Assembly (NCBI GenBank): GCA_045593845.1
Contig: JAZNXK010000004.1
Span: 78,296-142,295, forward strand
Length of the DNA stretch: 64,000 bases
Direction: 5' to 3'
DNA from: Alphaproteobacteria bacterium
Lineage (GTDB): Bacteria > Pseudomonadota > Alphaproteobacteria > RF32 > CAG-239
In this document: positions 3,588 through 63,233 of the stretch, piece after piece
Position numbering within the stretch: the first letter of the stretch is position 1
Layout: the number at the start of each line of letters is the position of its first letter
Program-made: the position numbers and the translations under genes
The notes under the pieces: model-generated
The model's database searches: none
The model's input: the letters and a program-made list of their open reading frames with translations, nothing else
Told to the model about the DNA's origin: nothing

Positions 3588-3602
3588 ACCGCGACAAAAA
3601 AA

Positions 3603-33689: not shown

Positions 33690-33752
33690 TATTTTTCTCC
33701 TAAAAAAGTTATAAAAAAACGGCAAACCTTTTGCCGCACCAAAATTTATTTT

Positions 33753-34244: not shown

Positions 34245-34261
34245 TTTACACTCCTTTCATA

Positions 34262-34291
34262 AAAAATTATAAAAAAAGGAGCCCAAAAGGC
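34262..34291 (-). terminator. intrinsic terminator after the N-module stub
   Basis: On the minus strand, hairpin ggagcc/ggctcc is followed by a T7 run. Confidence 0.65.
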
Positions 34292-34372
34292 TCCGGAATA
34301 AATTTCAATACATCAAACCAGAAAAACTATTCAGCATCTTTTTTCTCTCTATCATCTTTCTTGTTTTGCCAA

Positions 34373-34588
34373 TCATCGAAGAACCAATCCATACTGCGGA
34401 TAATCGTTTTGCGCAATCCCCTGCCGCGCCATATCATTTGCCAGCTCATTTTCTCTGCTTAATCGCAATGTTTGATATTGCAACTCATCTTGTGTTGAAA
34501 ATCCGCTATGGTCAACTCCATAGCTGTCAACCCCATTGTCACCGTTTTGATACCCGAACGGAGATTGATACTTCCCGAAAAAATCCAT
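34373..34588 (-). pseudogene. N-terminal-module-only stub of the modular toxin family (71 aa)
   Basis: MDFFGKYQ...YPQYG followed by LVLR-stop. There is no cargo domain. Confidence 0.7.
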
Positions 34589-34647
34589 TTTATTTATCCC
34601 ATATAAAAAATTTATAAACTTTACTACATACAAATTTCGACATTTTA

Positions 34648-34797
34648 TTGACTTTTTTCCATTAATACGCTATATACAAAGTACCTTAAGGTACTTTTCC
34701 AATAGGAATGAAAACCGAAATCGCCTATTGCGTATCTTACATAGGGTTGACAGCCCTGTGCAAGGAAAAAAGGAAGGCTCTCACAAGAGAGCCTTTT
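34648..34797 (+). ncRNA. candidate small RNA, copy 1 (promoter, structured ~115 nt, terminator), convergent with 34801..35181
   Basis: TTGACT-N17-TATATA at 34648-34676. A CCTTAAGG box starts 8 nt after the -10. Conserved hairpin caatagg/cctattg, a second hairpin, then ggctctc/gagagcc plus TTTT. Confidence 0.55.
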
Positions 34798-34800
34798 AAT

Positions 34801-35181
34801 TTATCTTTTAGGATAATATGTAGTAGAGATAAAATTCTTATCATCTTTCAGCGATGTTACAACTCTTAAATCTCCATTTTTACCCTGCGACATATAAACA
34901 TTTTGACCAAATTGATTTGTTTCTACAGGTTCTTGCTTAATTATTCCTGGTATCCTTTTGACATCACTTCTATTAACACCATGCTTATATATTCCCTTAT
35001 TCAAACCAAAATTTCTAACCGTTCCTGTTTCTCGCCCCAAAGCTTTTCCATGTACAATCACATTTCCGTCTTCCCCTGCTATTGCCTCTCCTCGTTGTAA
35101 CACGACAGGTTCTCCGTTATGGTTTTTCATTTTTGCAATTACATCTGTAGCATTACCTGCAACATAAAAAAATTCTGTCAT
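34801..35181 (-). CDS. stand-alone KHGV-type cargo domain (orphan cassette with its own RBS and ATG, 126 aa)
   Basis: Homologous to the C-terminal ~120 aa of 35357..36400. The first part includes a 96-nt identical tract. Confidence 0.65.
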   Translation of the reverse strand: MTEFFYVAGNATDVIAKMKNHNGEPVVLQRGEAIAGEDGNVIVHGKALGRETGTVRNFGLNKGIYKHGVNRSDVKRIPGIIKQEPVETNQFGQNVYMSQGKNGDLRVVTSLKDDKNFISTTYYPKR

Positions 35182-35185
35182 TTCC

Positions 35186-35343
35186 TTGACTTTTACACCT
35201 TAATATAATATATATGAACTGCCTTAAGGTATTCCTTGCCAATAGGAATGAAATCGAAATCGCCTATTGTGTATCCTATACCCGCCAGATAAGCGGTTAT
35301 AGAGAACAAGGAAGAGGAGTTCTTGAACAAAGAACTCCTTTTA
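35186..35343 (+). ncRNA. candidate small RNA, copy 2, convergent with 35357..36400
   Basis: TTGACT-N17-TATATA at 35186-35214, with the same CCTTAAGG box and conserved hairpin. Hairpin 2 and the terminator (ggagttctt/aagaactcc plus TTTT) keep structure but not sequence. Confidence 0.55.
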
Positions 35344-35356
35344 TATATTTATTGTC

Positions 35357-36400
35357 TTACTTTTCAGGAATATATTTATACATTGAAGATATAGTCCTAT
35401 AATCATCAATAGGAGTTGTAGACAACTTAATTTTTTCATTATTACCAAGAAATCTATAAATGTGTTGATTTCTATTATTTATTTCCAACGGTTCATTTTT
35501 AATATATCTTGGAATTTTTACAACTTCATCTCTTGGAACCCCATGTTTATAAATAATTTTATTTAGTCCATAGTTTCTAGCTGTTCCTGTCGCATGTTGC
35601 AAAGGTCTTCCGCTAACAATCACATTTCCGTCTTCCCCTGCTATTGCCTCTCCTCGTTGTAACACGACAGGTTCTCCGTTATGGTTTTTCATTTTTGCAA
35701 TTACATCTGTACCATTTCCCTCAAAAGGATTTTGGCTCAATTTATCATAAGCTCGCCCTATCTTATATCCTTGATACATCATATTTACAGGCTCATATGT
35801 TGCCGCGCCTATCGTTCCTCCGCTCAACATTCCTCCGCCAAATTCTGCAAGTTTTCCAGTTCCATCTGCTAATGTCCGACTATTTTCGTCCTTTAGATTA
35901 AGATAATCATTCATTTTTGTATCAACTCCGAGTTTATTGCCCAACCAGTCCAAACCTCCGAAAGTCATTCCATTTATGGCTCTGTTCATACCATATAATG
36001 TATCCATACCGCTCATCAACAAACCGTTTTCCATATTCCTATTTTGTTGCTGTGTAAACATATTGCTTTCCTGTTCTTGAGACTGTTGATTCTGTACTGG
36101 CATATTTCTTGCCAAGTTCAGCGCGTTTTGTACTGTCGGACTAAGCTTTGAAATATCATAATTCGTAGCATTTGAGAGATTACTACCCCAAAAATTTGCT
36201 CCATACTGCGGATAATTGTTTTGCGGAATTCCCTGCCGCGCCATATCATTTGCCAGCTCATTTTCTCTGCTTAATCGCAAAGTTTGGTATTGCAGCTCAT
36301 CTTGTGTTGAAAATCCGCTATGATCAACTCCATAGCTGTCAACTCCATTGTCACCGTTTTGATACCCGAACGGCGATTGATACTTTCCGAAAAAATCCAT
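35357..36400 (-). CDS. modular toxin-family protein: N-module plus Q/N-rich linker plus Gly-rich region plus KHGV-type C-terminal domain
   Basis: Full N-module and the ISKLSPTVQNALNLAR linker. Start placed at MDFFGKY (36400). Confidence 0.75.
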   Translation of the reverse strand: MDFFGKYQSPFGYQNGDNGVDSYGVDHSGFSTQDELQYQTLRLSRENELANDMARQGIPQNNYPQYGANFWGSNLSNATNYDISKLSPTVQNALNLARNMPVQNQQSQEQESNMFTQQQNRNMENGLLMSGMDTLYGMNRAINGMTFGGLDWLGNKLGVDTKMNDYLNLKDENSRTLADGTGKLAEFGGGMLSGGTIGAATYEPVNMMYQGYKIGRAYDKLSQNPFEGNGTDVIAKMKNHNGEPVVLQRGEAIAGEDGNVIVSGRPLQHATGTARNYGLNKIIYKHGVPRDEVVKIPRYIKNEPLEINNRNQHIYRFLGNNEKIKLSTTPIDDYRTISSMYKYIPEK

Positions 36401-36452
36401 CTTATTTTTCCCTTCCATAAAAAAAAGAGCCTTAAAAGCTCTTTAATGTATA

Positions 36453-36779
36453 TCAAAATGACTTAATAATCATTATCGTTTCGCTCGGATAATAAAGCAT
36501 AACCAAAACTTCCATAATGAGACAAGGTATTGTAATATATTGCAAGCGAAGTTTATCATCATGTATGCACACACTCCACTTTTTTTGTAACACATAACAC
36601 AAAAACAAAGGATGTACTACCCAGAAACATATATCAAAAATAAATAACACCGGAAAAAATGGTACATAAGCATGCAACCCTATCATAACAGAAAAAGCTA
36701 CAGCAACAAAAAAGGCTACTATAAAATCTAGTACTTTAATTATTGTTTTGTTTTCAGTTGTCTTATTTATATTGTACAT
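36453..36779 (-). CDS. 3-TM membrane protein (candidate immunity protein for 36791..37423)
   Basis: Lies immediately downstream of, and adjacent to, the cassette. Hydrophobic throughout. Confidence 0.55.
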   Translation of the reverse strand: MYNINKTTENKTIIKVLDFIVAFFVAVAFSVMIGLHAYVPFFPVLFIFDICFWVVHPLFLCYVLQKKWSVCIHDDKLRLQYITIPCLIMEVLVMLYYPSETIMIIKSF

Positions 36780-36790
36780 AAATAAACCAC

Positions 36791-37423
36791 TTACCAATCT
36801 TTATTATTCACAGCATCACTAATCTTGTTAGTAATATAATTAACACCTTGTGTCAACACTTTTCGCGTTCCAACACCTGCTCCCCTCGTAAGCGGTAATT
36901 GATTAATTTTCACGCCTACTGTATTTGCAATCCCATTAGCAATCAAATTCGTCCCGAAATCTTTCCAATTTTCGGCATATCCGGCAGAAGCAATACCGGT
37001 ATTTGCGACTGCATTAAGAGCATTATCCATTACTTTCGCACCCTTAAACAACCGCAGCGGCGACATCACTGCACCAGCAAATTCTGCCCCACCATATAAA
37101 TACGGATAGTTTGTGCTCAAGTTATTTTGCAATTGTCTGGCTACATCTCTACCTTTGGTATAGTTGTCGCTATTTCCTGTCAACAAAGCCGATACTCCTC
37201 CAAAAGTTTCATCAAAATTTCCTAACGTTAAACCTGTCGTATATCCAACCGCCGCTGCTTGCGTTGCATCAGCAAAATTTTCTCCCCAATTTTTTACCGT
37301 ATTCCAAGTATTATTTTGCTGTTCTTGCGGCTGGCGGCTTTCTGCCGGAAACTTTCTTGCTAAATTAAGTGCATTTTGCACTGTCGGACTAATACTCGCA
37401 ATATCAATCCCGCCTCCTCTCAA
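36791..37423 (-). CDS. orphan cargo cassette starting at the conserved linker (LRGGGIDIASISPTVQNALNLAR), Gly-rich C-terminal domain
   Basis: No N-module. There is an in-frame stop 11 codons upstream, and only a TTG start at the linker. Confidence 0.55.
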   Translation of the reverse strand: MRGGGIDIASISPTVQNALNLARKFPAESRQPQEQQNNTWNTVKNWGENFADATQAAAVGYTTGLTLGNFDETFGGVSALLTGNSDNYTKGRDVARQLQNNLSTNYPYLYGGAEFAGAVMSPLRLFKGAKVMDNALNAVANTGIASAGYAENWKDFGTNLIANGIANTVGVKINQLPLTRGAGVGTRKVLTQGVNYITNKISDAVNNKDW

Positions 37424-37496
37424 ACTCGCATATTGATAATACCATTGACATCATGATTGTTTATCGCCTCATAAAGCCTAGTCCAATTTTGTTTAT

Positions 37497-37979
37497 TTAA
37501 TCCACCGGTGTTATATTGTAGAGAAATATCAAATATAACATCAAGATTATAATTGGTATTGCAATTATTGCATAAAAAACTTGCAAAAATCTGAAAAAAT
37601 AATACAAAATTTTATTTTTATTCTCAAATAAATAGCTATTCCACAAGTAGAGAATAGCAAAAAAGAATAACAATCTGTTAAATATAATCAATATGAGTGT
37701 AAACAAATCAATTTCTGTTGCATTGTTTATTAAGCCTCCCATTTCTAAAAAGATATTTATTCCAAAAGAAGATAAGATAAAAAATATCGAAAATAAAATA
37801 TTAAAGCAAAAATTTTTATAATCACTATAATTTATCCAATATCCGAACCATATCTTTTGAAATAATAGTGGAACAATTATTCCTACATATACAACCTCTT
37901 CTATAAAACCGACAAAAGCAAAAGGCTCAATTAGAATTGTTAAAAATAAAAGTAAAGAAAGCAAATATTTAACAAACAC
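37497..37979 (-). CDS. 5-TM membrane protein (candidate immunity protein for 38063..38476)
   Basis: Very hydrophobic 160-aa ORF with a GTG start, downstream of the glycine-zipper toxin. Confidence 0.55.
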   Translation of the reverse strand: MFVKYLLSLLLFLTILIEPFAFVGFIEEVVYVGIIVPLLFQKIWFGYWINYSDYKNFCFNILFSIFFILSSFGINIFLEMGGLINNATEIDLFTLILIIFNRLLFFFAILYLWNSYLFENKNKILYYFFRFLQVFYAIIAIPIIILMLYLIFLYNITPVD

Positions 37980-38062
37980 TTATTATCCTCCATAATATAG
38001 ATCAAGATAATAAATGAAAAGGTACAAACAGTCAACTTATTTATACATTTCTCATAGATATG

Positions 38063-38476
38063 TTATTTTTCAAATTTTATTGGATTACTTAATAATAAAT
38101 TGCAAGTTTCAGGAACATTATATCTACCAGCAATATATCCTGCCGTAGCTCCGATAAAATCATTTTTCAAATCTTTTTTAGCATCCCCGAGTACCCCTAA
38201 TATACCTCCATATGCCACCCTTTTTTGAGGATCAGCAATTTTATCTTTAGTATCTTGCATTTCTTTATACAACCCTCCTGCTAAAGTTTCTGCAGTAGCC
38301 AATAATCCATCTGTTGAGCCAATACAACTTACATACTGATGTTTATTCACATCCGATATATCAAATTGCAGCTCATCTTGTGTTGAAAATCCGCTATGAT
38401 CAACTCCATAGCTGTCAACTCCATTGTCACCGTTTTGATACCCGAACGGCGATTGATACTTTCCGAAAAAATCCAT
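38063..38476 (-). CDS. modular toxin-family protein: 36-aa N-module fused directly to a glycine-zipper-rich C-terminal domain (137 aa)
   Basis: MDFFGKY..STQDELQ followed by AGGLY..AYGGILGVLGDA..IGATAGYIAG. Confidence 0.7.
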   Translation of the reverse strand: MDFFGKYQSPFGYQNGDNGVDSYGVDHSGFSTQDELQFDISDVNKHQYVSCIGSTDGLLATAETLAGGLYKEMQDTKDKIADPQKRVAYGGILGVLGDAKKDLKNDFIGATAGYIAGRYNVPETCNLLLSNPIKFEK

Positions 38477-38554
38477 CTTGTTTTTCCTTATATAAAAAGT
38501 TTGACAATGTTCGAAAATAAATTTAACCTCTCTTTGTTCTAAAGGAGATAATTC

Positions 38555-39004
38555 ATGAAGAAAATTTTAGTGCTTGTCATTTTACCTTTAATCTATTGCC
38601 TTAATGTTTCTGCTGCAGAAAAAAATATTGATATCCTTGAAAAGGAATTTATAGATTGCGCAGATAGTTGGGAAAAACATGAACAAAAATGTCCGGAATC
38701 ATGGAGTATGAAATGTTATAATCACTTAATGACTGCTCATAAAAATACTCAACAATGCTTTCAAAAAGTTGCAGTAAAATTGTTCACAAATTTCTACGAG
38801 TTATCTGAAAAAGAAGCAAATAAAAAGATTGATGATTTTCTCAAATTCACCTATGACCAATATTTCTTCATTTTTGCCGAAACCGATTTTTGCAAAAAGA
38901 ATAATTGCGGCCTCTCAATATATTTATATAGCGAATATGTAACCACTGACCAATTACGATATTATGTAAACAAAATAATTAGGTCTATATCTGCCAGAAA
39001 TTAA
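38555..39004 (+). CDS. secreted Cys-containing helical protein, possible LprI/DUF1311-like lysozyme inhibitor (candidate immunity protein)
   Basis: AAGGAG RBS and signal peptide ..LNVSA/AE. Convergent with the GH108 cargo gene, overlapping it by 4 nt. Confidence 0.6.
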   Translation: MKKILVLVILPLIYCLNVSAAEKNIDILEKEFIDCADSWEKHEQKCPESWSMKCYNHLMTAHKNTQQCFQKVAVKLFTNFYELSEKEANKKIDDFLKFTYDQYFFIFAETDFCKKNNCGLSIYLYSEYVTTDQLRYYVNKIIRSISARN

Positions 39005-39909
39005 TATTCATTATACCTTTTTCTGTGCCCTCTTTCAAATATTATTTGTGATGGGTCTTTTTTCAGATATTCATCTTCTGCTCGGTTTACATTATTTATA
39101 AAATCTGTTCTTATAGCTTTATAATTTGTATTTCTGACAGCTCCCAAAGTATCTGAACCTATTATACCATCTGCCTTAACTCCGAGAGCTTTTTGCAAAT
39201 TCATAATTGCTGTCGGTTGCCCTTGCACAACACCATCATCAAAAACTATACCTGCCAATTCGTCAGGAAGTTGATTTATTTTGGGTTTTAACCAATAATC
39301 TCGATAATATATTGCATCAGCTCTTTCTCTTGTCATATTTTCTATATCTTCATCCGGATAAATACGCGAACTTATACCATAATTTGTAGCTCCACCTCTA
39401 TCATTCGGATGATTAACATACCCGCCCTCATTTGCTCTGGTTCTATTCATTGCTTGTTGAAAGCGATTATCAGCTAACATTTGATCAATAAATGATTGAC
39501 TAAAATCATTTCCATACAAAGAATAATCAATATTAGCTTCTTGATTACCATCATTCATAACCGTCGACAATACATTTTGAGCATATTGAATAGCCGATTC
39601 ATTTGTTGGATTATTCTTTGCCAAATTTAATGCTGCTTGCACAGTCGGACTAATACTCGCAATATCAAGCCCGCCTCCGCGCAAACTTGCATTCTGCCAA
39701 AAGTTTGCTACATACTGCGGATAATCGCACTGCGCAATTCCCTGCCGCACCATATCATTTGCCAGCTCATTTTCTCTGTTTGTACGCAATGTTTGATATT
39801 GCAACTCATCTTGCGTTGAAAATCCGCTATGATCAACTCCATAACTGTCAACCCCATTGTCACCGTTTTGATACCCAAACGGCGATTGATATTTCCCGAA
39901 AAAATTCAT
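39001..39909 (-). CDS. modular toxin-family protein: N-module plus GH108 lysozyme plus peptidoglycan-binding domain
   Basis: EGGYVNHPNDRGGATNYGI is the GH108 signature. It is followed by a PG_binding_3-like LQKALGVKADGIIGSDTL. Confidence 0.8.
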   Translation of the reverse strand: MNFFGKYQSPFGYQNGDNGVDSYGVDHSGFSTQDELQYQTLRTNRENELANDMVRQGIAQCDYPQYVANFWQNASLRGGGLDIASISPTVQAALNLAKNNPTNESAIQYAQNVLSTVMNDGNQEANIDYSLYGNDFSQSFIDQMLADNRFQQAMNRTRANEGGYVNHPNDRGGATNYGISSRIYPDEDIENMTRERADAIYYRDYWLKPKINQLPDELAGIVFDDGVVQGQPTAIMNLQKALGVKADGIIGSDTLGAVRNTNYKAIRTDFINNVNRAEDEYLKKDPSQIIFERGHRKRYNEY

Positions 39910-40000
39910 CTTGTTTTCTCCTTTACATAAAAAAAAGAGCCATAACGGCTCCTGTAAAAAAATTTTGAAAATTTCAAGTAAACATAAACAACAAAAAATC

Positions 40001-40237
40001 CTAAAAAGGTAAACCTTTCTGCTTTTTCAAGATATTTTCTTTAGTTATAGGTACACATCCTATTTTTTCATCCCAAGTTAAACAATCTGATCGGCATATT
40101 TTTTGCTCAGGGTCATAAATTTTTCCCCCATCAAGGCAAACCATTTTCATATCTAGTTCAAAATAACAATAAATAGCAATTATCATAATTACAAAAAAAC
40201 AAACCAGATATTTTATAATTTTTTTAATACTTTTCAT
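40001..40237 (-). CDS. membrane-anchored Cys-rich small protein (candidate immunity protein for the SAA-like cargo)
   Basis: N-terminal TM plus CLDGGKIYDPEQKICRSDCLTWDEKIGCV. Overlaps the upstream gene by 14 nt. Homologues lie at 56346..56528 and 56476..56874. Confidence 0.65.
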   Translation of the reverse strand: MKSIKKIIKYLVCFFVIMIIAIYCYFELDMKMVCLDGGKIYDPEQKICRSDCLTWDEKIGCVPITKENILKKQKGLPF

Positions 40238-40907
40238 TAATGCCCTCCACTCTCTGATAACGACAGGCTTCTTTAGAGTCAGAATAAAAAGGATTATCCA
40301 CTAATTCTCTCGCCTGAAAATTTACATCCCTATCATGCCAATAATCAGCCAAAGCATCAGGATACGACATTCCTTTGTAATATCTATTCTTGAAATAGTC
40401 AAATACTTCTTTTTCATTTCCTAAAACTTTCGCTGCTAGTTTACCATACATTCCTCTTTGTGCAGCCTCATAATTGCCTTTACAATGAAAATAATCATCT
40501 CCACCAATAGTATTGTCAGATTTCATATCAAAATAATTGCGCACCATATCCATGGTACCACCAAGAACTTGTCGCATTGGAGATTGCTGAGTTTGTTGTT
40601 GTGCAGGCAAACTTCTTGCTAAATTCAGTGCTGCTTGCACTGTCGGGCTCAACCTTGAAATATCATAATTTGTTCCATTTGACAAATTATTACCCCAAAA
40701 ACCCGTGCCATACTGCGGATAATCGCACTGCGCAATCCCCTGCCGCGCCATATCATTTGCCAGCTCATTTTCTCTGCTTAATCGCAAATTTTGATATTGC
40801 AGCTCATCTTGTGTTGAAAATCCGCTATGATCAACTCCATAGCTGTCAACTCCGTTATCTCCGTTTTGATACCCGAACGGTGATTGATACTTTCCGAAAA
40901 AATCCAT
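40224..40907 (-). CDS. modular toxin-family protein: N-module plus serum-amyloid-A-like C-terminal domain
   Basis: DDYFHCKGNYEAAQRG aligns with the vertebrate SAA core [16 protein letters not shown]. The gene starts 12 nt after the endolysin stop. Confidence 0.75.
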   Translation of the reverse strand: MDFFGKYQSPFGYQNGDNGVDSYGVDHSGFSTQDELQYQNLRLSRENELANDMARQGIAQCDYPQYGTGFWGNNLSNGTNYDISRLSPTVQAALNLARSLPAQQQTQQSPMRQVLGGTMDMVRNYFDMKSDNTIGGDDYFHCKGNYEAAQRGMYGKLAAKVLGNEKEVFDYFKNRYYKGMSYPDALADYWHDRDVNFQARELVDNPFYSDSKEACRYQRVEGINEKY

Positions 40908-40919: not shown

Positions 40920-41354
40920 TCATTTTATATCATTATAAAAAAAATGTCCTTTTGTTTCATAACAAGGAGCATGATGCAAAGCCCACTTCGGTTTTATATT
41001 TTTGGTATGATAAAAAGTAGCATTATTGGTAAAATCCGTCATTTTACCCGCAATCGCCTTTTTTGCCACATTCAAACATCTGACAAAACTTGCATCATTT
41101 TCATCAACTCGCAAAAGTTTTTGATAATTAGGATCATTTTTATTCCAGCAGCTAAATTGAAATCTCTTTTGACATGTCTCCCTGATTCCGGCAATTTTGA
41201 CACCGTTTTCCATTTTGTAACCGGTAAACCATTTTTTTGCCCTAAATCTGTTCATTATAACGCAAGCAACCGCCTCAATTCCCTCCAAACCATCACCTCT
41301 GGCCTCACCCCACAAGGTTTGTGCCAAAACCCAAACATCATCATCTCGCAGCAT
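40920..41354 (-). CDS. endolysin, SleB/CwlJ-type cell-wall hydrolase (Hydrolase_2)
   Basis: LAQTLWGEARGDGLEGIEAVACVIMNR motif. Confidence 0.8.
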   Translation of the reverse strand: MLRDDDVWVLAQTLWGEARGDGLEGIEAVACVIMNRFRAKKWFTGYKMENGVKIAGIRETCQKRFQFSCWNKNDPNYQKLLRVDENDASFVRCLNVAKKAIAGKMTDFTNNATFYHTKNIKPKWALHHAPCYETKGHFFYNDIK

Positions 41355-52141: not shown

Positions 52142-53971
52142 TCAATTTACCTTTTCTTTTGAATTATCCTGCTGTTTCTGTGCAGTTTGCACCGCAAGTT
52201 CTTTATTGGCAAAAGCCAATTTTTCAGCCTCAATTTTTGCCTTAATATCAAGTTCCTTATTTTTTAGGGCATTTTTCTGCAGTTCTATAATTTGCTTGAT
52301 ATTCGGACTATTATCATCATCTTTTTTATTTTGTTCTGGCAATATTGCTTGTGCATTCGGTATTTCAGAAACATTTTCATCCAGCAATAACTCTCGTTCA
52401 ATAGAATTAAACACTCCCTCAAGTACCGTATCAAAAGATCTTGCTCGCGGCATGGTGGATATAATTGCCTCAACCATACATCTGTATAAAGGAAGTAATT
52501 TAGGCTGCGTGGAAACGGTAAGCAAAGCCTCTTGCACCGTTTTTCCTAGATTGGAAACCGCCGCAATCATACTCGCATTTTCTTCGGCCTTGTTAATCAC
52601 GCTACCGGTCTCAACCGTAAACAACATTCCGCGAAGTTTTTCGGTTTTAAGCAAGCGCACCGCCATCTCCGCCAGTCCTTTTTCCTGCTTTTGTTCTTCA
52701 GGCAAAAAAGAAGCCAATTTTTCATCGCTGAAATATTCGCAGATAATTTCTGCCTTAATTCTCAACAAATCCCTGATAAATCTTTGCATATCATTTTGTC
52801 TGTCCTGATTGCGCAAAGTTCCAAAATTTGTCTTTTTGATAATTGCCGTCGCCGTGTCAGCACTGTTGGAATTTCCACGCATAATATCCGAAACACCGGT
52901 AATCTCAAAAATATTATTGATAACATCTTGTCTGCGTTTTGAAAGTTGCTCCAATGCCGCAATATATTGTTCCAAAGGTACAAAGTCGATAACCGACCTA
53001 ATTCCGCCACTCTCACGCAATTTTGTAAAATCTGAAACCGAAACCAAAGTCACGTCTTTACTCAAAATATCTGCCAATTCCGGAAAAGAATTGTCATAAG
53101 CCCCGCTGACTTTTAAGGCCTGCATGGTAAGCTTCATGCGATTATTTATCCCATTTAGCTCATTCAGCATTTCTTTTATCAAACAATAATCCGGCGCCGG
53201 AATAAGGCTGTCATTGGTCTGGGTAGCCCAAATCGGCTTCGGACAAGGAAAGAAATTTTGCATTCCGCAAACATTGGCGCTGATTTTCAAAAATCTGTCA
53301 GAACAAGCTTTTGAAAGCCAATAAACACGACGGCTTTTCTTATCCCACACCTCATACACCAAAATATCGCCTTTAATTTTTATATTATCGACCGCAAAAT
53401 TTTGCTTTACTTCATCAGCAGTCATATAAATTTTTCGCGCTACCCAATCGACTTCTTCCCAAACACCTTTTTTCATGCAATCGGCAATAAAATCTTTTGG
53501 ATCAACATAGATTGACTCAACTTTCTCATCTTTTTTTACAGTCAATTTTTCCAACGGATTTATAGGATTTGGAACTTCTGTAAATTCCGGTTTATATTGT
53601 TCCCAAAGCACTCCTGTTCCCGAAATCAAAAAGTCGTTGCGGGCATATTTTATAACACTGTCAAAATCAAATTGCGCCAAATCCCACTCCAAAGCTTTTT
53701 CCAAAATAGTGCAAGCCGCGCGCTCCGCCCTATTGGCGCTTTTGTTTTGCCGCTCAATATAAAATTGCGGTTGCTTAAAATATAAAAAAGGCTTCAATGT
53801 TTCTATTGTTGACCAAAAAATATTATATTTTCCGCCGTCATATTTTCGTTCATCTTTATAAACCTTTCTTGTCTCGTCAACCAATTGATAATAAGCATCA
53901 TACTCCTTTTCGGCAGAGGCAATTTTTGCAAACCACTCCTTAAGCAAGGATTTTTCTTCTGTTTCATTCAT
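52142..53971 (-). CDS. portal protein
   Basis: About 610 aa, lying between the large terminase/GroES genes and the scaffold and capsid genes. Confidence 0.7.
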   Translation of the reverse strand: MNETEEKSLLKEWFAKIASAEKEYDAYYQLVDETRKVYKDERKYDGGKYNIFWSTIETLKPFLYFKQPQFYIERQNKSANRAERAACTILEKALEWDLAQFDFDSVIKYARNDFLISGTGVLWEQYKPEFTEVPNPINPLEKLTVKKDEKVESIYVDPKDFIADCMKKGVWEEVDWVARKIYMTADEVKQNFAVDNIKIKGDILVYEVWDKKSRRVYWLSKACSDRFLKISANVCGMQNFFPCPKPIWATQTNDSLIPAPDYCLIKEMLNELNGINNRMKLTMQALKVSGAYDNSFPELADILSKDVTLVSVSDFTKLRESGGIRSVIDFVPLEQYIAALEQLSKRRQDVINNIFEITGVSDIMRGNSNSADTATAIIKKTNFGTLRNQDRQNDMQRFIRDLLRIKAEIICEYFSDEKLASFLPEEQKQEKGLAEMAVRLLKTEKLRGMLFTVETGSVINKAEENASMIAAVSNLGKTVQEALLTVSTQPKLLPLYRCMVEAIISTMPRARSFDTVLEGVFNSIERELLLDENVSEIPNAQAILPEQNKKDDDNSPNIKQIIELQKNALKNKELDIKAKIEAEKLAFANKELAVQTAQKQQDNSKEKVN

Positions 53972-54221
53972 CTTCAAAAACTCCCAAAATACTGTTTTCT
54001 CTCAAAGCTACAACGTCTTTTTCCGGCATAGGCAAATCATCAAAAACATGAAACAACACCCTGTCACCGACCTTAACCGACCTCACATCTTTGCCCACCG
54101 AAACAACTTCTCCCGTCGTTCGCTGATTTGCAAAGCCATCGCATAAAAATATTCCCCCGTCTGTAGTTGCCTTTTCTTCAGGCAGCTTAACAAACACCCT
54201 GTCCATTATCGCCTGTATCAT
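53964..54221 (-). CDS. GroES/Cpn10-like co-chaperonin (85 aa)
   Basis: GroES pattern: DRVFVK..E....T.GGI.L.......G.VV.VG......V.VGD.V.F. Confidence 0.7.
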   Translation of the reverse strand: MIQAIMDRVFVKLPEEKATTDGGIFLCDGFANQRTTGEVVSVGKDVRSVKVGDRVLFHVFDDLPMPEKDVVALRENSILGVFEDE

Positions 54222-54308
54222 TTTTCTCCTTTCTGATAAAAACCGCTTGCCAGCGGAATATTGCCAACAAAAAAGGCCGCTAAAAGCAGCCTCGTTTTTC
54301 ATAAAATT

Positions 54309-55661
54309 TTACCACCCTATTTTCGTTTTGGCGGCATCACAGAAAATATCTTCAACACAAATATTTCCTTTTGCATAAATTTTCGGCACACCTTTATCAA
54401 AAACCGGTTCGGCAAACGTAAGTGCCAAAGCATCTGCCATATCCGGAGATCTTCCCAATCTTTTCTTCATCTCCGCTTTACCTTCCAGCTTCAAACGTCC
54501 TCTGCTATCAAAATCTTTTCTTACCGCTGTCAGTTCATCAAACAAGCCTTCTTGCTGCGGTAACTTTGGAAAAGGGCTTTCTTCCAGCCACTCCAAAATT
54601 TCGCCCCACATTTCTGCTCTGCGATTATAATACCGCTCATCTTTAATAGCTTTTTCGCCAAAATAAACTCCGCGGATAATTTCCCCGAAACCTCTGTCTT
54701 TCAAAATATCAAAAACTCCGGCCCCCTGCCCGCCGATATCCATAAACAAACGCTTCGGATGACAGTTGCAAATAAAATTGGTGGCCAAATTTGCCACCTC
54801 TACATTACTTTTATTCTCATAGCTTTCAAAACGGTAACACAAGCGCCCTTTTCTGAAACAAAAAACAGTTTTATCATCCCCGAAACGCGCAATATCAAGC
54901 CCGATTATCAAAGGCGACGTTGTTGACAATATCTCTTGCGCAAAAGCCCTGCGCACAAGCAGAGAGCTTATAAGACAATTATTGCCCTGTTTCATTGGCT
55001 CTCCGAGCCAAATATGTTCATATTTTTCCAAGCTCCGTTTTTTGCATTTTTCCGCCTGCATAATCATTTCTTGCGGACAGAAAGGATTGTCATAATAATT
55101 TACTTTTTTTACCAAAGTTCGCTCATCGGGATTTGCCGCCACCGCAACCCATAAAGGATCGTTTTCGTATCGTCTGTTCATAGATATCCAAATCTCGGAA
55201 CCGTCCTTTCTGATTGTCGGCTCCAAAATTTCCCACGACATTGCTGATATTGTTTGCGCTTCTTCTATCCATGCAATATCAACACCTTCCAAAGATTTTA
55301 TCTTTTGTGCATCTTGATCTCTTAACCCCTTAAAAATAAAACAAGTTCCGGTAATTTTGTTTTCAATTTTTTCAGCACAGATATTATAATCGGTCAAACC
55401 ATAAAACTTAATTCTATCGCACAAAAGCTTATAAACGGAATCTTTTATGCTATCCTGTATCTCTCGCAAACATGCTATAAACAGCTTTTTCTTCCGCCCC
55501 AAAAAAAGCAAACTATCTGCAAAAGCATAACTTTTTCCGCCGGATCTTCCTCCATAAAAAAACTTAATCCGGCATTTCTCCGTCATCAAAGATGAAAATA
55601 TTGCCGGAATCTTCGCTGTGATCCTTTTCAAATTTCTTTTCCTTTCCTCTGACAAACTCAA
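54309..55661 (-). CDS. terL: terminase large subunit
   Basis: Walker A FFYGGRSGGKS and a C-terminal nuclease-type region. A TTG start is assumed. Confidence 0.88.
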   Translation of the reverse strand: MSLSEERKRNLKRITAKIPAIFSSLMTEKCRIKFFYGGRSGGKSYAFADSLLFLGRKKKLFIACLREIQDSIKDSVYKLLCDRIKFYGLTDYNICAEKIENKITGTCFIFKGLRDQDAQKIKSLEGVDIAWIEEAQTISAMSWEILEPTIRKDGSEIWISMNRRYENDPLWVAVAANPDERTLVKKVNYYDNPFCPQEMIMQAEKCKKRSLEKYEHIWLGEPMKQGNNCLISSLLVRRAFAQEILSTTSPLIIGLDIARFGDDKTVFCFRKGRLCYRFESYENKSNVEVANLATNFICNCHPKRLFMDIGGQGAGVFDILKDRGFGEIIRGVYFGEKAIKDERYYNRRAEMWGEILEWLEESPFPKLPQQEGLFDELTAVRKDFDSRGRLKLEGKAEMKKRLGRSPDMADALALTFAEPVFDKGVPKIYAKGNICVEDIFCDAAKTKIGW

Positions 55662-56076
55662 CCAATACCTGCTTCAACTCATCTTTCAACGGCTGTCTGT
55701 CATTTTTTTCGGACCAACCGTGATTGGCCTTGAGGGCCGTTATGGACATTGAAGAATTATAAAACCCCAACCCCGCTGCGTTCATCAGCCATTCTTCCTG
55801 AAAACGCATTGCCTGCTCATACGCATCTCTAAATTCCTTAATAGTATCGCGCCAAGCAAACACCCTGTCTATCGTAACCCCTATATTTTCTGCAAAACGC
55901 ACAACCGTTGGGCAAGGTGCCGCAATTTTGTTGCTGACCACATCAAACTTTTCCGTTTTTTTATTAAAAACCTCCTTCGGCTCATCAATAAAAAGCGGCG
56001 CATCCCTAAACCACCCAATTATTTGTTTTGCATATTCTGTTTTATAATCCTTCGCAATCCTCATCTTTTTTCCCAT
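55564..56076 (-). CDS. terS: terminase small subunit
   Basis: 170 aa, immediately upstream of terL and overlapping it. Has an HTH-like N-terminal region. Confidence 0.65.
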   Translation of the reverse strand: MGKKMRIAKDYKTEYAKQIIGWFRDAPLFIDEPKEVFNKKTEKFDVVSNKIAAPCPTVVRFAENIGVTIDRVFAWRDTIKEFRDAYEQAMRFQEEWLMNAAGLGFYNSSMSITALKANHGWSEKNDRQPLKDELKQVLVEFVRGKEKKFEKDHSEDSGNIFIFDDGEMPD

Positions 56077-56153
56077 AAAAAAAGAGCCACAAAGGCTCTA
56101 TCAGTAAATAAACTTTTTATTAGACGCCGTCTGCACGCCACATCAAGCCTGCC

Positions 56154-56282
56154 TCAGCGCAAACCTGCATATTGCAGTTCATCCTGTATTGAAAATCCGC
56201 TATGGTCAACTCCATAGCTGTCAACTCCGTTATCCCCGTTCTCATACCCGAATGGCGATTGATATTTCCCGAAAAAATTCAT
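56154..56282 (-). pseudogene. N-module stub (42 codons) ending at an in-frame TGA inside the linker
   Basis: MNFFGKYQSPFGYENGDNGVDSYGVDHSGFSIQDELQYAGLR-stop, followed by remnants of GRLDVA. Confidence 0.65.
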
Positions 56283-56345
56283 CTCCTTCTCCCACAAAAA
56301 AAGGAGCCTCAAATGCTCCTGCAAAAAATCCCGTAATTCAAACCA

Positions 56346-56528
56346 CTAAAAAGGCAAACCTTGTTGCTTCTTAAAGATATTTTCTTTAGTTATAGGTACA
56401 CATCCTATTTTTTCATCCCATGTTAGACAATCCGAACGGCATATTTTTTGCTCCGGATCATAAATTTCTCCGCCATCAAGACAAACCATTTTCATTACAA
56501 ACATCAGGATAAATCCAGTCTTTTCCAT
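56346..56528 (-). pseudogene. N-terminally truncated copy of the Cys-rich immunity-like gene 40001..40237
   Basis: About 88% nucleotide identity by eye to 40001-40150. The TM anchor is missing. Confidence 0.55.
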
Positions 56529-56874
56529 GTTTATAGCATTTATCTAAAGTAAATTCTGCATCACATTCGCCGGTTGTTGGATTAAATGGTAAGTTATTTT
56601 GCATGCAAATAGCTATTATAACATCATTAGAAATACATCCTACTGGTTTATGACGACACTTTTCAAACAATTTAACTTGGTCATATGTCATCATAACACA
56701 ACCGTTAATTTTATTCCATACCAAACAGTCATCACGGCAACGTTTTTCTTTATAATCCCAAACATTACCGGCATCCAAACAACTGTTTTGCATAAGAAAA
56801 ACAAAGCATTTCCAAGCAACAAAACATAAAATTACCAAGAAAATAGTAATTCTTATAGCCTTCAAATTACGCAT
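56476..56874 (-). CDS. membrane-anchored Cys-rich protein (candidate immunity protein, 132 aa)
   Basis: N-terminal TM. CLDAGNVWDYKEKRCRDDCLVWNKINGCV is homologous to 40001..40237. Lies directly downstream of the SAA-like cargo. Confidence 0.65.
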   Translation of the reverse strand: MRNLKAIRITIFLVILCFVAWKCFVFLMQNSCLDAGNVWDYKEKRCRDDCLVWNKINGCVMMTYDQVKLFEKCRHKPVGCISNDVIIAICMQNNLPFNPTTGECDAEFTLDKCYKHGKDWIYPDVCNENGLS

Positions 56875-56886
56875 AATATCCTCACT

Positions 56887-57463
56887 CTACCAATACTCTT
56901 TAGGAAACGCCGGATTTTTTGTTCGATAATCCGCACATGCTTCTTCAGCATTATCGTACAGTCCGGAATCTCCACGCAACCGTCCCACAATATTCACATT
57001 CAAATCATGTGCTTTATCATCTTGAGCTTCTTCCTCGCTTTTCCTTTTGTATGCCTGATTCCAATAAAAGTCAAATTTTTCTTTTGCATCACCAAGCATT
57101 TTAGCAGTATTATACCCTAATGGACCGCGTGATGCTGCATTGTAATTAGCCTTACAATGATGGTAATCATCTAAATTTTTATAATTATGCTTTTTCATCT
57201 TAAAATATTCAGACACCATATCTTTTGTTGCACCAACAATTTGTTGAAGTGGAGATTGCTGGTTCTGCTGAATTTGCTCAGGCATATTTCTAACAAAATT
57301 GAGAGCATTTTGCACAGTCGGACTTATACTCGCCACATCAAGCCTGCCTTCGCGCATACCCGCATTGCGTTGAAAATCCGCTATGATCAACTCCATAGCT
57401 GTCAACTCCGTTATCCCCGCTCATATACCCGAATGGCGATTGATATTTCCCGAAAAAATCCAT
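56887..57463 (-). pseudogene. frameshifted modular toxin gene: N-module (33 aa) out of frame with linker plus SAA-like domain
   Basis: Frame 1 gives MDFFGKYQSPFGYMSGDNGVDSYGVDHSGFSTQ then a stop. The next frame gives ..NAGMREGRLDVASISPTVQNAL..DDYHHCKANYNAASRGP..FPKEYW. An internal ATG at MREGRL is possible. Confidence 0.65.
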
Positions 57464-57659
57464 CTCCTTCTCCCACAAAAAAAGGAGCCTAAAAGCTCCC
57501 ATCAAAAATTCAAACCAAACAACCTTATCACGCAAAAAAACAAGAGGCGGCATCTCATCGACCCACCTCTCGCATTATGGAAAAAAATATAACACAGAAT
57601 GACAGAAAAGTCAATTTTAGATTGTTCACCCTGTGGATAACTTTTTTACCTCCCTTATT

Positions 57660-58544: not shown

Positions 58545-58700
58545 ATTAGCACCTCCATACAAAAAATACATTTACTGTATTTTAAGTCAATACATTTTTT
58601 GTAACAATGTGGATTTTTTGCTATATTTGCAACATTGGCTTGATTTTATGATAAAATTATTATATCAATAAATTAGAGTATTACATATTTGGTAAAAAAC

Positions 58701-59372
58701 ATGAATGAACAAAAATGGAAATGGCTTCGCGATTATATGCAGAAGCATGGCATAAATCAGCAACAGGTTGCCGAGGCTTTACAATGGAAAAAACCTAGAG
58801 TTTCGGAACTTTTGGCCGGAAAAAGAGACCTCCCTGTCACCAAAGTTTTTTTGGCGGCACGTTTTTTTAACCTCGACCTTGAAGAACTGACAAAATACAA
58901 TACAGGTCTTTCAAACAAGGTTCCTTCTTACAAAGGACAACTTCCGGCACATAACAAAACAAACGATATTTCATATATTGATGTCATAGATTCGGCAAAT
59001 ATCAAGGGAAAATCGTTAAAAAATACCGTTATTGACCAAGTTCCATTCAGTAACGCACTTGCCAAACAACTAAATCTGCCGAGCACACTATCCCTAAAAA
59101 TCATTATCGCCAGCGGAGATGCCATGAGCCCGACAATCAATGACCGCGATATAGTATTGGTTGACACCTCGGTAAACACACCGCAAAATAACGGATTATA
59201 TCTGTTCAATATCCAAGATGAATTGTTTATCAAACGATTATCACTGGATAAGTTTTCCGGCAGTGCTGATATCATTTCGGACAATAAACTCTACCCCATA
59301 ATCAAGATAAACAACATCAAAAAACTTTCCTGTCTTGGCAAAATAGTTTACGTTTGCAAACATTTTGCATGA
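58701..59372 (+). CDS. CI/LexA-like repressor (HTH plus S24 peptidase-like domain)
   Basis: N-terminal XRE HTH (INQQQVAEALQWKKPRVSELLAGKR). The C-terminal S24 fold carries ..GDAMSPTI.. and ..LFIKRL.. Confidence 0.8.
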   Translation: MNEQKWKWLRDYMQKHGINQQQVAEALQWKKPRVSELLAGKRDLPVTKVFLAARFFNLDLEELTKYNTGLSNKVPSYKGQLPAHNKTNDISYIDVIDSANIKGKSLKNTVIDQVPFSNALAKQLNLPSTLSLKIIIASGDAMSPTINDRDIVLVDTSVNTPQNNGLYLFNIQDELFIKRLSLDKFSGSADIISDNKLYPIIKINNIKKLSCLGKIVYVCKHFA

Positions 59373-60837: not shown

Positions 60838-61794
60838 CTAATTTACCGTATGACTAATCGGATTAAAGCGCAAAAGCATGGTCTTCCACATATCATATTT
60901 CTGCGGATATTTCTCCGCTAAAATATTATACGGCTGACAAACAAAAACCGCTCTTCTTGCACTATCGGCAACCGACCTGAAATGGCTGTCACTGTTATAT
61001 CTCGCCTTGTCCAAAATATCAACCGAACGCACTGTTCCGTCTTGGTTAAGATATGCCCTGACCTCAATAATCATATCTTCAATACCCATTGCTCCGGGAT
61101 CCAAATTCCAACAAGCACGCAATCTTCCGGCAATAGCATCCGCCTCCGATATTGACAAGTCACTAAAATACGACCCACCGACACCGCCGGCAATACCCAT
61201 ATTATTGACCTGTGTTCCGTGCTTTATGGTAGCATTAGCACTTTGTTCACCGAGTTTTTTCTCCATATTATCAACCGATGCCAGCAAATCCTTCAACGGA
61301 TTATCCAAAACCGGCTGACTCTTTTGTTTTTTCGGCTCTTCTTTTTTGGGCTCCGGCTTTTTGGGAGGAGTAGGCTTTTTTGGTTGAATAGAACGGCTCG
61401 GGCGCTTCGGCTCCGGCTTTTTATCCTCTTTTTCGGGCTTACTCGGCTGCGGTGGCACCACAAAATCCTGTTTCGGCTCTACCGGAGTTTCTTCCTCGGG
61501 AGCTGTATCTTCTTTATCGTCTGCATCATCAGGACTAACTTCCTTCGGTCTTTCATCATCTTTAGATTTTTGCTCTTCCATTTTTTCTCTTGTTGCCGGA
61601 GAGTCTTCATCCGCAAACTCTGCTTTGGAGGGCAAATTTGTTATTTCCGAAATTTTTACGTCATTCAAATCTACAATAATCGGCACTTGATCAAGTGTCA
61701 TATTTTTGCGCCACAAAAACGGCAAATCAATCATTACCATCAAGATAACGATTCCATGCAGCGCCAAAGATTTATATAAGGACGAATTTCTCAA
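60838..61794 (-). CDS. tolA: TolA-like cell-envelope integrity protein
   Basis: N-terminal TM, long Pro/Lys/Glu-rich spacer, and a TolA-type C-terminal domain (..RLRACWN.DPG..). Follows tolQ-tolR. Confidence 0.75.
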   Translation of the reverse strand: MRNSSLYKSLALHGIVILMVMIDLPFLWRKNMTLDQVPIIVDLNDVKISEITNLPSKAEFADEDSPATREKMEEQKSKDDERPKEVSPDDADDKEDTAPEEETPVEPKQDFVVPPQPSKPEKEDKKPEPKRPSRSIQPKKPTPPKKPEPKKEEPKKQKSQPVLDNPLKDLLASVDNMEKKLGEQSANATIKHGTQVNNMGIAGGVGGSYFSDLSISEADAIAGRLRACWNLDPGAMGIEDMIIEVRAYLNQDGTVRSVDILDKARYNSDSHFRSVADSARRAVFVCQPYNILAEKYPQKYDMWKTMLLRFNPISHTVN

Positions 61795-61800: not shown

Positions 61801-62244
61801 TTACTTCTTTTTCTCAACATTTTGATTTGGAGCAGGATCGGTTTTCAACCCCACTTTTTCAAAACCGGCATTTTTCAACAACGCCATCAAACCCAAAACT
61901 CTTCCGTATTGTGCCGTTGTATCACCAGAAATAACGACACTGATATCAGGATTAGACTCTCTCACCGCCGAAACTTTTGCCACAATCTGATCGGCAGGAA
62001 TTTCTTCTTTGCCGATATAATAATATCCTTGTTCATCAACACTGATATTCAAACTTGTTTCTTTTCCGGTCAGATTTTTTCCTCCTACCTTCGGCAAATC
62101 TATTGCAATACCCGAAGTCATTAGGGGCGCAGCCACCATAAACACAACCAACAAAACCATCATAACATCCATTAGGTTGGTAATATTTACATCAGCATTA
62201 CGGCGACTGGAGCGACGCGAAGATTTTTGCATAATTTTCGGCAT
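61801..62244 (-). CDS. tolR: TolR/ExbD-family protein
   Basis: INITNLMDVMMVLLVVFM motif, 147 aa. Confidence 0.85.
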   Translation of the reverse strand: MPKIMQKSSRRSSRRNADVNITNLMDVMMVLLVVFMVAAPLMTSGIAIDLPKVGGKNLTGKETSLNISVDEQGYYYIGKEEIPADQIVAKVSAVRESNPDISVVISGDTTAQYGRVLGLMALLKNAGFEKVGLKTDPAPNQNVEKKK

Positions 62245-62987
62245 TATTCACCTGCCATTTCGGCCCTTATGGCTGTATCATCAATTTCTCGCGACAAAAT
62301 ACTTGAAAATTCCGTAGCAAAATTTTCCAATCTGTTGGCATAGCGATCAATATCCGAAGATATTTTGTTATAAGCCACCACCGCAGGAATAGCCGCAATC
62401 AGACCGAAAGCGGTTGTAAACAAAGCCTCGGCAATACCGGGAGCGATCGCCGCCAAAGAATTACTTTGTGTCGCCGCAATCGCATTAAAGCTGTTAATAA
62501 TACCCCAAACAGTTCCAAACAAACCAACCAACGGTGCAACCGAGCCGGTAGAAGCCAAAAATCCCATTCTGGTATCCAAACTGTCAACCTCTTTATCCAT
62601 AGAAACAGCCATGGCTTTTTCAATACGTTGTTGCAGTGAGACACCTCTCAAACCTCTGTCGGTTTTGGATTTCATAATATTGGTGCGTTTCCACTCGCGC
62701 ATAGCAGCCACAAACATTGCCGACATCGGGTCTGCCGGTTTATTACCTATACTCTCATATAGTTTGTCAAGAGAACCTCCCGACCAAAATTTTGACTCAA
62801 AACTGCGCGAACGTTGCTTTACCTCACGTAAAGTGGCAATTTTATCAATGATAATTGCCCACGACCAAATTGATGCCAAAAGCAAACCTATCATTACCAC
62901 TTTGGTAACACTGTCAGAGCTCCAAATCATGCTCCACATAGACATTGAACTGCCGTTGGCAACATCTGCTAAAGTTTGTGTATCCAT
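62244..62987 (-). CDS. tolQ: TolQ/ExbB/MotA-family proton channel
   Basis: Three TM and the GLFGTVWGII / IAPGIAEALFTTAFGL motifs. Start placed at MDTQTLAD. Confidence 0.88.
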   Translation of the reverse strand: MDTQTLADVANGSSMSMWSMIWSSDSVTKVVMIGLLLASIWSWAIIIDKIATLREVKQRSRSFESKFWSGGSLDKLYESIGNKPADPMSAMFVAAMREWKRTNIMKSKTDRGLRGVSLQQRIEKAMAVSMDKEVDSLDTRMGFLASTGSVAPLVGLFGTVWGIINSFNAIAATQSNSLAAIAPGIAEALFTTAFGLIAAIPAVVAYNKISSDIDRYANRLENFATEFSSILSREIDDTAIRAEMAGE

Positions 62988-63233
62988 TTTTACCTCATAA
63001 ATTACACTAAAACGATATTTTGGCACAACATACAACAAAAACCTAAATAATCAATTAATTTTCGCACAAATTCAGCAATATTTTTCATAAAAAAACACTC
63101 TCAAAAACCACACAATTTTGTTGAAAAAAATCACCAAATGTTCTTTCAATTAAACACAAAAAAACGCCGATTTTCCACATAAAAAAGGAAATATCGGCGT
63201 CAACTTTCATTTAAGATAAAAATGTCAATTCAT

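Follow-up and report, generated by a model that had tools for sequence, protein, structure and literature searches.

The stretch of DNA analyzed here (the window) is 64,000 nucleotides (nt) long and comes from contig JAZNXK010000004.1 (positions 78,296 to 142,295) of assembly GCA_045593845.1, an uncultured gut or rumen alphaproteobacterium. Its GC content is low (~38%), and its nearest public relatives are gut metagenome-assembled genomes (MAGs) from yak, sheep, goat, and others, labelled Alphaproteobacteria. The window contains a phage-like element that runs on the minus strand from ~59.4 kb down to ~32.6 kb. Between the candidate late promoter of this element and terS lies a locus composed of five parts: a broken gene that joins an N-terminal module (N-module) to an SAA-like toxin cargo, an intact 132-amino acid (aa) Cys-rich partner gene, the 3' fragment of another partner gene, a terminator-like hairpin, and an N-module stub (Table 1). 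The initial annotation of the window had listed these five elements, and their coordinates and minus-strand orientation are borne out by the open reading frames (ORFs), the alignments, and a hairpin scan. It had also described the locus as decaying, which agrees with the finding of two dead N-module genes beside an intact Cys-rich partner. The locus is probably the remnant of a second toxin/immunity array at the head of the late operon.

The N-module, MDFFGKYQSPFGYQNGDNGVDSYGVDHSGFSTQDELQYQ, is found at eight places in the window (blastn). Every gene in the main array, a long series that follows the lysis genes of the element, opens with it. The N-module is the beginning of a conserved N-terminal region (N-domain) of ~90 residues (alignment of 78-88 members), which takes in the segment initially called the linker. 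Residues Y23, G24, V25, H27, F30, Y38, E46, F70, and W71 are invariant, and the near-invariant positions include Y63-P64-Q65. The N-domain also has a second motif, ..LD[IV]ASISPTVQ...

The broken gene starts at an N-module ATG (57463) and runs to a TGA at 57340-57338, and its cargo continues in the +1 frame to a TAG at 56889-56887. The open cargo frame spans 57405-56887 and matches the Pfam SAA model (PF00277) with an E-value of 4.2e-18 (66 bits, cut-off 30.8), and the same model matches the SAA gene of the main array at 40 kb (40224-40907) with an E-value of 3e-20. Both translations contain an sNxxGR-type motif, described for helix 4 of bacterial SAA-like domains (PMC12419801): ..KANYNAASRG.. 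in the cargo of the broken gene and ..KGNYEAAQRG.. in that of the 40-kb gene. The two cargos belong to different subtypes: SAA2, which ends in ..PAFPKEYW, and SAA1, which ends in ..GINEKY, respectively.

In full-length relatives, the motif GGCTTGATGTGGCG lies 238 nt from the ATG; in the stub and the broken gene, this interval is 133 and 119 nt, respectively. The broken gene is thus 119 nt short of its full-length relatives and 14 nt shorter than the stub, where a net deletion of 13 nt had been given. The -119 junction removes E46, Y63-P64-Q65, and F70-W71. The stub has a 105-nt in-frame loss of the N-domain middle and then a TGA, and its cargo and the partner of that cargo are gone. Homology to the second motif runs beyond this TGA to 56136. 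The two N-module copies of the locus match each other with a blastn E-value of 1e-57. At each junction, the second motif begins right where the N-module ends, and the conserved middle of the domain is missing.

The frameshift of the SAA2 gene is genuine. The junction, in which TTTTCAACGCA is joined to ATGCGGG, is base-identical in three related loci: L053 (seen in three samples), L054, and L059. These are independent assemblies made with different assemblers and k-mer sizes (the L053 scaffold, L054 at k141, and L059 at k87), so a one-off assembly or homopolymer error, which the initial annotation had wished to exclude, does not account for it.

The 132-aa partner ORF (56874-56476) is intact, is preceded by a GAGG ribosome-binding site (RBS), and encodes 12 Cys. 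Its peak 19-residue Kyte-Doolittle window is 2.63 (start residue 9), and that of the 78-aa partner of the 40-kb SAA gene is 2.41 (start residue 7). No comparable hydrophobic segment is present on this scale in the partner fragment (56346-56528), whose ORF overlaps the 3' end of the 132-aa gene. The 78- and 85-aa partners and 14 members of the 132-aa family all retain C32, C46, C50, and C59. A second domain, with six Cys, is additional in the 132-aa family, and the 132-aa and 78-aa partners are 35% identical over 69 residues.

Toxins and partners are paired here by co-occurrence across genomes. The SAA2 subtype is followed by a partner of 127-132 aa in the window and in the related loci L001, L002, and L003. 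Behind the SAA1 subtype lies a 4-Cys partner, which is 78 aa long in the window and 85 aa long in L046. A second SAA toxin in L001 and L002 has a shorter, 68-69-aa partner next to it that lacks the 4-Cys pattern. The SAA2 toxins of L001 and L002 are intact (237-240 aa), and their 127-128-aa partners are 57-63% identical to the 132-aa protein. Proteins P0016 and P0024 are intact, full-length SAA2 relatives. NCBIfam has no family for the toxins or the partners, save a sub-threshold muramidase match of the GH108 cargo in the main array.

The prok-SAA domains of the lipocone superfamily, which have a four-helix core and a fifth helix, are predicted to be polymorphic-toxin tips that act on lipid head groups, e.g., those of lipid-linked wall precursors (Burroughs, Nicastro and Aravind, eLife 2025, PMC12419801). 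One immunity type predicted to be coupled to prok-SAA is a membrane-anchored domain with four absolutely conserved Cys and a fold of one helix and four strands, and TelC, the sole lipocone toxin tested, is active only outside the cytoplasm (PMC12419801). Judged by its sequence, the 132-aa partner is most likely an immunity protein for SAA2-type toxins, with the 4-Cys domain predicted to face the periplasm. Since the two co-occur, its cognate toxin is presumed to be of the SAA2 subtype and not the 40224-40907 product.

A sister element carries a longer array at the same site. L003, from a yak rumen MAG, has a terL that is 95% identical (aa) to that of the window and a 4.4-kb array between the same 98-aa gene and terS. 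This array is composed of three cassettes and a remnant. Gene A encodes an N-domain and a cargo without a family match (it was not scanned separately) and has a convergent lipoprotein partner. Gene B encodes an N-domain and an SAA2 cargo that is 95.5% identical (aa) to the window cargo, but is frameshifted by a 1-nt deletion near codon 15. Gene B is followed by the identical 132-aa partner and then by the equivalent 78-aa-type partner fragment. Gene C is intact, with a cargo like window 36791-37423 and a multi-transmembrane partner. In remnant D (5492-5540), which corresponds to the 3' part of the window stub, the TGA and the terminal sequence of that stub are already present.

The window and L003 align in three colinear blocks (58600-57366 with L003 171-1410, 57366-56169 with 3108-4305, and 56170-55500 with 5492-6162), the second of which is 98.8% identical and ungapped. 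The window form is therefore the L003 form minus L003 1411-3107 and 4306-5491. At the equivalent site, L049 (terL 87% identical, aa) carries about five N-module genes (tblastn gives six N-module matches, of which one is a stub), and L051 is also occupied there. L005-L007 (~71% terL identity) have no cassette between the late promoter and terS. By these sequence comparisons, the locus is an array in its own right, at a second site where insertion has recurred. The window, L003, L049, L053, and L057 are mosaics whose junctions fall in the N-domain or the second motif. For the window, loss from an L003-like array by deletion is the simplest reading of the direction of change. The N-module stubs are scars rather than conserved elements. 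A role for the stub before terS as a conserved functional leader was considered and rejected, as the stub directly 5' of terS in L049 is differently built, with other junctions and its own frameshift.

The toxin is lost at this site and the partner is kept. An exact-protein look-up finds the 132-aa partner in ten places, and the identical protein is on 14 contigs. The SAA2 alleles before it are dead through a 1-nt deletion (L003/L052, L051, and L055), through the -119 junction (the window, L053, L054, and L059), or through a 5' truncation that has removed the N-domain and the second motif (L057). No intact toxin was found upstream of the exact 132-aa partner among its copies. Across 11 copies, 0 of 396 nt vary in the partner, compared with 3 of 279 in the cargo (all non-synonymous) and 7 of 130 in the fragment region. 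The difference between the partner and its flanks (10/409) gives a Fisher p of 0.002, and that between the partner and the cargo alone gives p=0.07. The 90% cluster of the partner contains one sequence only. The intact SAA2 toxins of related bacteria (L001 and L002) provide something to be immune to. With moderate confidence, the 132-aa partner may be regarded as a selected orphan immunity gene against the SAA2-type toxins of related strains.

A cassette in these arrays consists of the ~90-aa N-domain (N-module, linker, and second motif), a variable cell-envelope toxin, a partner, and a terminator. Because the N-domain DNA is repeated, cassettes could be gained, swapped, and deleted. Relative to the sister element, the window would have lost two internal segments by recombination or deletion between repeated N-domain sequences, one event leaving the -119 fusion of an N-module to SAA2 and the other leaving the -105 stub. 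The 132-aa partner would remain functional as a membrane-anchored, periplasm-facing orphan immunity protein. By analogy with TelC, SAA2 toxins would attack lipid-linked cell-wall precursors from the periplasmic side. Taken as a whole, this account of a reduced second polymorphic toxin/immunity array that has kept an orphan immunity gene in the late operon of a podovirus-like element is likely to be correct.

Several observations weigh against it. The same -119 junction is present in both N-module copies of L053. This pattern fits a Campbell-type capture of a cassette at a pre-existing dead stub, and both deletion and insertion into a dead stub fit the data. Under stub capture, it is possible that the SAA2 gene was never functional here and that the cassette was retained for the sake of its immunity gene. 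A search for the source reads of this contig found none; in eight related runs, from other samples, the Logan contigs end at the repeats or represent other alleles. These alleles include a long-linker form and, in run X3, a stub that is 14 nt shorter; run X8 has a minimal form of N-module, 119-nt middle part, and remnant D only. Toxicity and immunity are predictions for all members of the family. No promoter dedicated to the 132-aa partner was identified, promoter-like matches being at chance level, and a search for RNA runs listed none. The invariance of the partner may partly reflect recency, as all copies are ~99% identical overall. Seven of the 10 flank differences are in one 130-nt stretch and are perhaps a single recombination tract.

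Some of these points are what would be expected if the whole locus were functionless wreckage, with the partner intact merely because the decay is recent. Few mutations are expected in 399 nt at ~99% identity, and the cargo-only comparison and the missing promoter and transcript point the same way. Such neutrality is nevertheless rather unlikely. Three distinct destructive events have struck the 5' part of the toxin gene and two more the neighboring cassettes, and the partner is untouched; one sequence on 14 contigs and the presence of intact SAA2 toxins elsewhere also speak against it. The initial annotation had instead read the locus as a segmental duplication of 40907-39800, with later decay of the toxins. 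The order of SAA cargo, partner, terminator, and next N-module does match that of the 40-kb locus, and 56169-56495 is 79% identical (nt) to 39796-40150 (blastn E=1e-88). The truncated partner copy that had been noted is also real (56495-56346 against 40150-40001), though at 90.7% over 150 nt and not the ~88% estimated by eye. Formal alignment is against a duplication, which is now highly improbable. Identity between the SAA cargos is 67% over 261 nt and 49% at the aa level, and the partners differ as described. Only the block of partner 3' end, terminator, and N-module is common to the two loci, and its 79% identity compares with 98.8% to L003, where it sits in a longer array with unrelated cassettes. 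The mirrored gene order needs no duplication, since SAA2, 127-aa partner, second SAA toxin, and 69-aa non-4-Cys partner is a natural array order in L001.

An active toxin locus would require that the cargo be expressed from an internal start (ATG 57357 or 57396), by re-initiation, or by ribosomal frameshifting. The cargo frame and its ..ANYNAASRG.. are kept, the stop of the N-module ORF lies 15 nt downstream of ATG 57357 (which makes re-initiation conceivable), and gene callers annotate a 169-179-aa SAA ORF in relatives. Internal initiation had been suggested initially, but the case for it is weak. ATG 57357 is specific to the window (TTG in L053, L054, and L059) and lacks a clear Shine-Dalgarno sequence. 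Without the N-domain, or without its invariant middle, the product would probably be inert, given that TelC acts only outside the cytoplasm. Programmed frameshifting was rejected because related alleles are broken in unrelated ways (1-nt deletion and 5' truncation), and activity at this locus is on balance very doubtful. A mis-join between N-module repeats during assembly could be suspected from junctions that lie exactly at repeat borders, where the Logan contigs break, several of them running on into the long-linker form. No long k-mer is common to the two sides of the junction, which makes a graph mis-join improbable, and the base-identical junction in three assemblies and the short-junction stub in run X3 leave an artefact with next to no probability.

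The reduced array lies behind signals that are partly shared with sister elements (Table 1). The scan finds five terminator-like sites, where 1.3 are expected. The sequence of the promoter-like site is kept in L049 upstream of the first N-module gene there, and the combination of promoter-like site, strong hairpin, and U-run (57533-57614) is found again in L049 at 6380-6470. An alternative hairpin, CTCC-U7-GUGGGAGAAGGAG, at 57464-57487 and 56283-56306 overlaps the U-run of each terminator and pairs with the RBS of the N-module gene downstream, so that RBS exposure could be coupled to terminator formation. No antiterminator was identified, and an Rfam scan of 55.9-58.1 kb gave no match. The leader at 57533-57614 resembles the late promoter/terminator leader of lambdoid phages. 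In Stx phages, the stx toxin genes lie behind the late promoter and terminator of a lambdoid phage, and the cargo genes here likewise lie downstream of a strong candidate promoter and its terminator-like hairpins and ahead of the first late genes. In contrast to Stx phages, no Q homologue was identified here, and the cargos are antibacterial and have immunity genes.

Table 1. Features of the locus and of the phage-like element, in window coordinates.
Feature	Position	Strand	Remarks
CI/LexA-type repressor	58689-59372	plus	head of element
Two small genes, 175 and 98 aa			downstream of repressor, upstream of promoter-like site
Promoter-like site TTGACT-17-TATATT, TG-extended	57586..57614	minus	10/12 matches; candidate late promoter, function inferred
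Strong leader hairpin with U-run, terminator-like	57540..57573	minus	-20.4 kcal/mol, z=-4.0; kept in L049
Terminator-like hairpin	57483..57500	minus	-10 kcal/mol; directly 5' of RBS of broken toxin gene
N-module frame of broken gene, residues 1-33 of N-domain, then out of frame to TGA	57338..57463	minus	junction 57366/57365
Predicted SAA2-subtype prok-SAA (lipocone) cargo, open in +1 frame	56887..57357	minus	preceded by second conserved motif GRLDVASISPTVQ
Intact 132-aa partner: membrane anchor, 4-Cys domain, second Cys-rich domain	56476..56874	minus	
3' fragment of 78-aa-type partner, residues 30-78, without membrane anchor	56346..56495	minus	
Terminator-like hairpin 5' of stub	56302..56320	minus	-8.8 kcal/mol
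N-module stub: ATG 56282, TGA 56156-56154, second-motif remnant to 56136	56136..56282	minus	junction 56171/56170
Terminator-like hairpin directly 5' of terS	56083..56099	minus	-9.7 kcal/mol, z=-4.1; kept in L003, L049
terS	55564-56076		followed by terL, portal, SU10-type major capsid protein, tail and fibre genes
Holin-like ORF, then Hydrolase_2 lysin	40920-41354 (lysin)		before main N-module array

No integrase, excisionase, or replication genes were recognized in the element, and several small ORFs have no family match. The element may be defective or domesticated. Megablast of 54-60 kb against 50,697 phage records gave no match. Searches of PHROGs and Pfam with the 175-aa and 98-aa genes were empty, except for a sub-threshold DUF6456 match of the 175-aa gene. 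A 112-aa gene (53964-54302) is located between terL and portal. The genes at this position in L049 and L051 carry a Cpn10 (GroES-like) annotation, so the product may be a co-chaperonin encoded by the phage. An ExbB-ExbD-TonB-like operon (62244-63038, 61801-62244, and 60838-61794) adjoins the element in the window and likewise in L006 and L049. In L013, the repressor is directly flanked by host genes of another kind, one of which is AnmK-like by eye.

The main array (32600-40907) has decayed members of its own, namely an N-module stub at 34373-34609 and a degenerate N-module at ~32691-32797. The gene at 36791-37423 is an orphan cargo that begins at the second motif without an N-module. A stand-alone ORF (34801-35181) duplicates the C-terminal third of the 353-aa gene at 35357-36418 and looks like a displaced alternative toxin tip. 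In the 137-aa gene at 38063-38476, the first 38 N-module residues are joined straight to a short cargo and the domain middle is absent; it may be a further product of deletion or a naturally short form. The N-domain-GH108 gene (39001-39909) is followed directly by a convergent gene on the plus strand (38555-39004) that encodes a 149-aa, Cys-containing protein with a signal peptide. The same arrangement is found in L049 and L050, and the product is likely a periplasmic immunity protein for the muramidase cargo.

The N-domain family is composed of 192 clusters at 50% identity, found by searching the first 100 residues against 1.84 billion representative proteins. The domain always starts at or near the first residue of the protein. 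Cargos named by Pfam are GH108 muramidase (11), SAA (4), VgrG3 C-terminal lysozyme-like (3), Tlde1 (3), YkuD (2), and SLT (2), as well as pesticin, GH46, and phage lysozyme. All cargos that Pfam can name act on the cell envelope or wall. The N-domain itself has no Pfam or NCBIfam model. Its AlphaFold model, of moderate confidence, has no regular secondary structure in residues 1-30 and a long helix at 32-56, and a Foldseek search of this model against PDB and BFVD gave no match. The invariant D-S-Y-G-V (N-domain residues 21-25, e.g., 40847-40833) lies in this unstructured N-terminal part and loosely fits the TonB-box pattern [DE]-[ST]-x-x-V, which is a lead only; the element also adjoins exbB-exbD-tonB.

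The N-domain is absent from IMG/VR viral contigs. Among 40 metagenome loci (at least 6 kb each), none has element markers within 10 kb of the N-domain gene, and no secretion apparatus is consistently near it. In L050 and L002, the N-domain genes sit amid housekeeping genes. A MacAB/TolC-like operon near some loci was considered as a linked exporter and rejected, because most such loci are from one human-gut lineage. In 23 of 50 loci from several lineages (e.g., L046 8290-8757, L127 9417-9914, and many of L066-L136), the N-domain gene is preceded, mostly at ~100 nt and up to a few kb away, by a gene for a 155-165-aa protein that has no match in Pfam; none is found in the window. Roles as a regulator or an adaptor are possible, as is an origin as a mobile-element remnant. 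Human-gut relatives have a second, different N-terminal module, MKNQSEYVWSYAAYGGEPQYIQTPYG, adjoining the N-domain gene (L127 11288-14307 and L135 11254-12291). This module is fused to a VgrG3-like C-terminal lysozyme domain in L135, and in L127 each such gene has a convergent signal-peptide partner.

The locus shares several features with the prok-SAA polymorphic toxins (PMC12419801), including an SAA-like C-terminus with an sNxxGR-type motif, a downstream membrane-anchored four-Cys partner, and variable tips behind a constant N-terminus. The N-domain is none of the trafficking modules described there (the type IV, VI, VII, and IX secretion systems, MuF, cystatin-like, and signal peptide), and the 132-aa partner differs from the described immunity type in its extra six-Cys domain. 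The traits of a polymorphic toxin system (Zhang et al. 2012, PMC3482391) are found here as well: a constant N-terminal region with diverse tips (192 representatives), a type-specific adjacent partner (by co-occurrence), orphan cassettes, and recombination at a conserved junction. Contact-dependent inhibition (CDI), Rhs, and Maf loci likewise have repeated constant regions, displaced toxin pieces, kept immunity genes, and recombination at a pre-toxin motif, here the second motif of the N-domain. Those loci have one full-length gene and 3' orphan tips, whereas each cassette here has its own short N-domain, and 5' stubs are therefore formed too.

The MuF toxins of temperate phages are also polymorphic toxins with immunity genes in a phage morphogenesis region (Jamet et al. 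2017, PMC5576092). In contrast to these, the cargos here are all envelope-targeting, and most members of the N-domain family are outside phage-like elements; the MuF domain has no Pfam match in the N-terminal region of the scanned proteins. Colicin M and pesticin, with their immunity proteins Cmi and Pim (PMC5821083), resemble the present system in having no signal peptide and in cargos that target peptidoglycan or lipid II. Further likenesses are periplasmic, membrane-anchored immunity proteins, some encoded by convergent genes, and an S24/LexA-type repressor and lysis genes nearby. Colicin-like bacteriocins have an N-terminal translocation domain with a Ton or Tol box and a receptor-binding domain; the DSYGV of the N-domain is only a loose look-alike of a TonB box.

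The two late-operon sites, one behind the promoter and hairpins and the other behind the lysis genes, would tie expression of the arrays to induction and release to lysis. Of the possible delivery routes, we would place first a bacteriocin-like release, by lysis or another route, with uptake across the outer membrane of neighboring cells. Loading onto or into element particles would come next, followed by an unrecognized host secretion route. Periplasm-acting cargos with periplasmic partners are compatible with all three. Tentatively, the N-domain might be an undescribed trafficking module for wall-targeting toxins of uncultured gut and rumen Alphaproteobacteria, with arrays captured in one lineage at two late-operon sites of the podovirus-like element and the present locus as an orphan-immunity scar. 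We regard this as possible but doubtful. If it were true, the induced element would be a release or delivery machine, working through lysis-coupled bacteriocin release or particle loading.

For a polymorphic toxin array, ending up with dead toxins and retained immunity is ordinary. Both the toxin type and the immunity type have been predicted in the literature; neither the N-domain nor its occurrence in the late operon of a phage-like element appears to have been described. The window, L003, L049, L053, L057, and the variant of run X8 form an allele series of one site, which shows short N-domain repeats driving cassette gain and loss. The locus supplies a candidate orphan immunity gene for prok-SAA lipocone toxins, which makes the predicted toxin-immunity pair directly testable. 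It also draws attention to an unannotated N-terminal domain family of 192 clusters that has only cell-envelope cargos.

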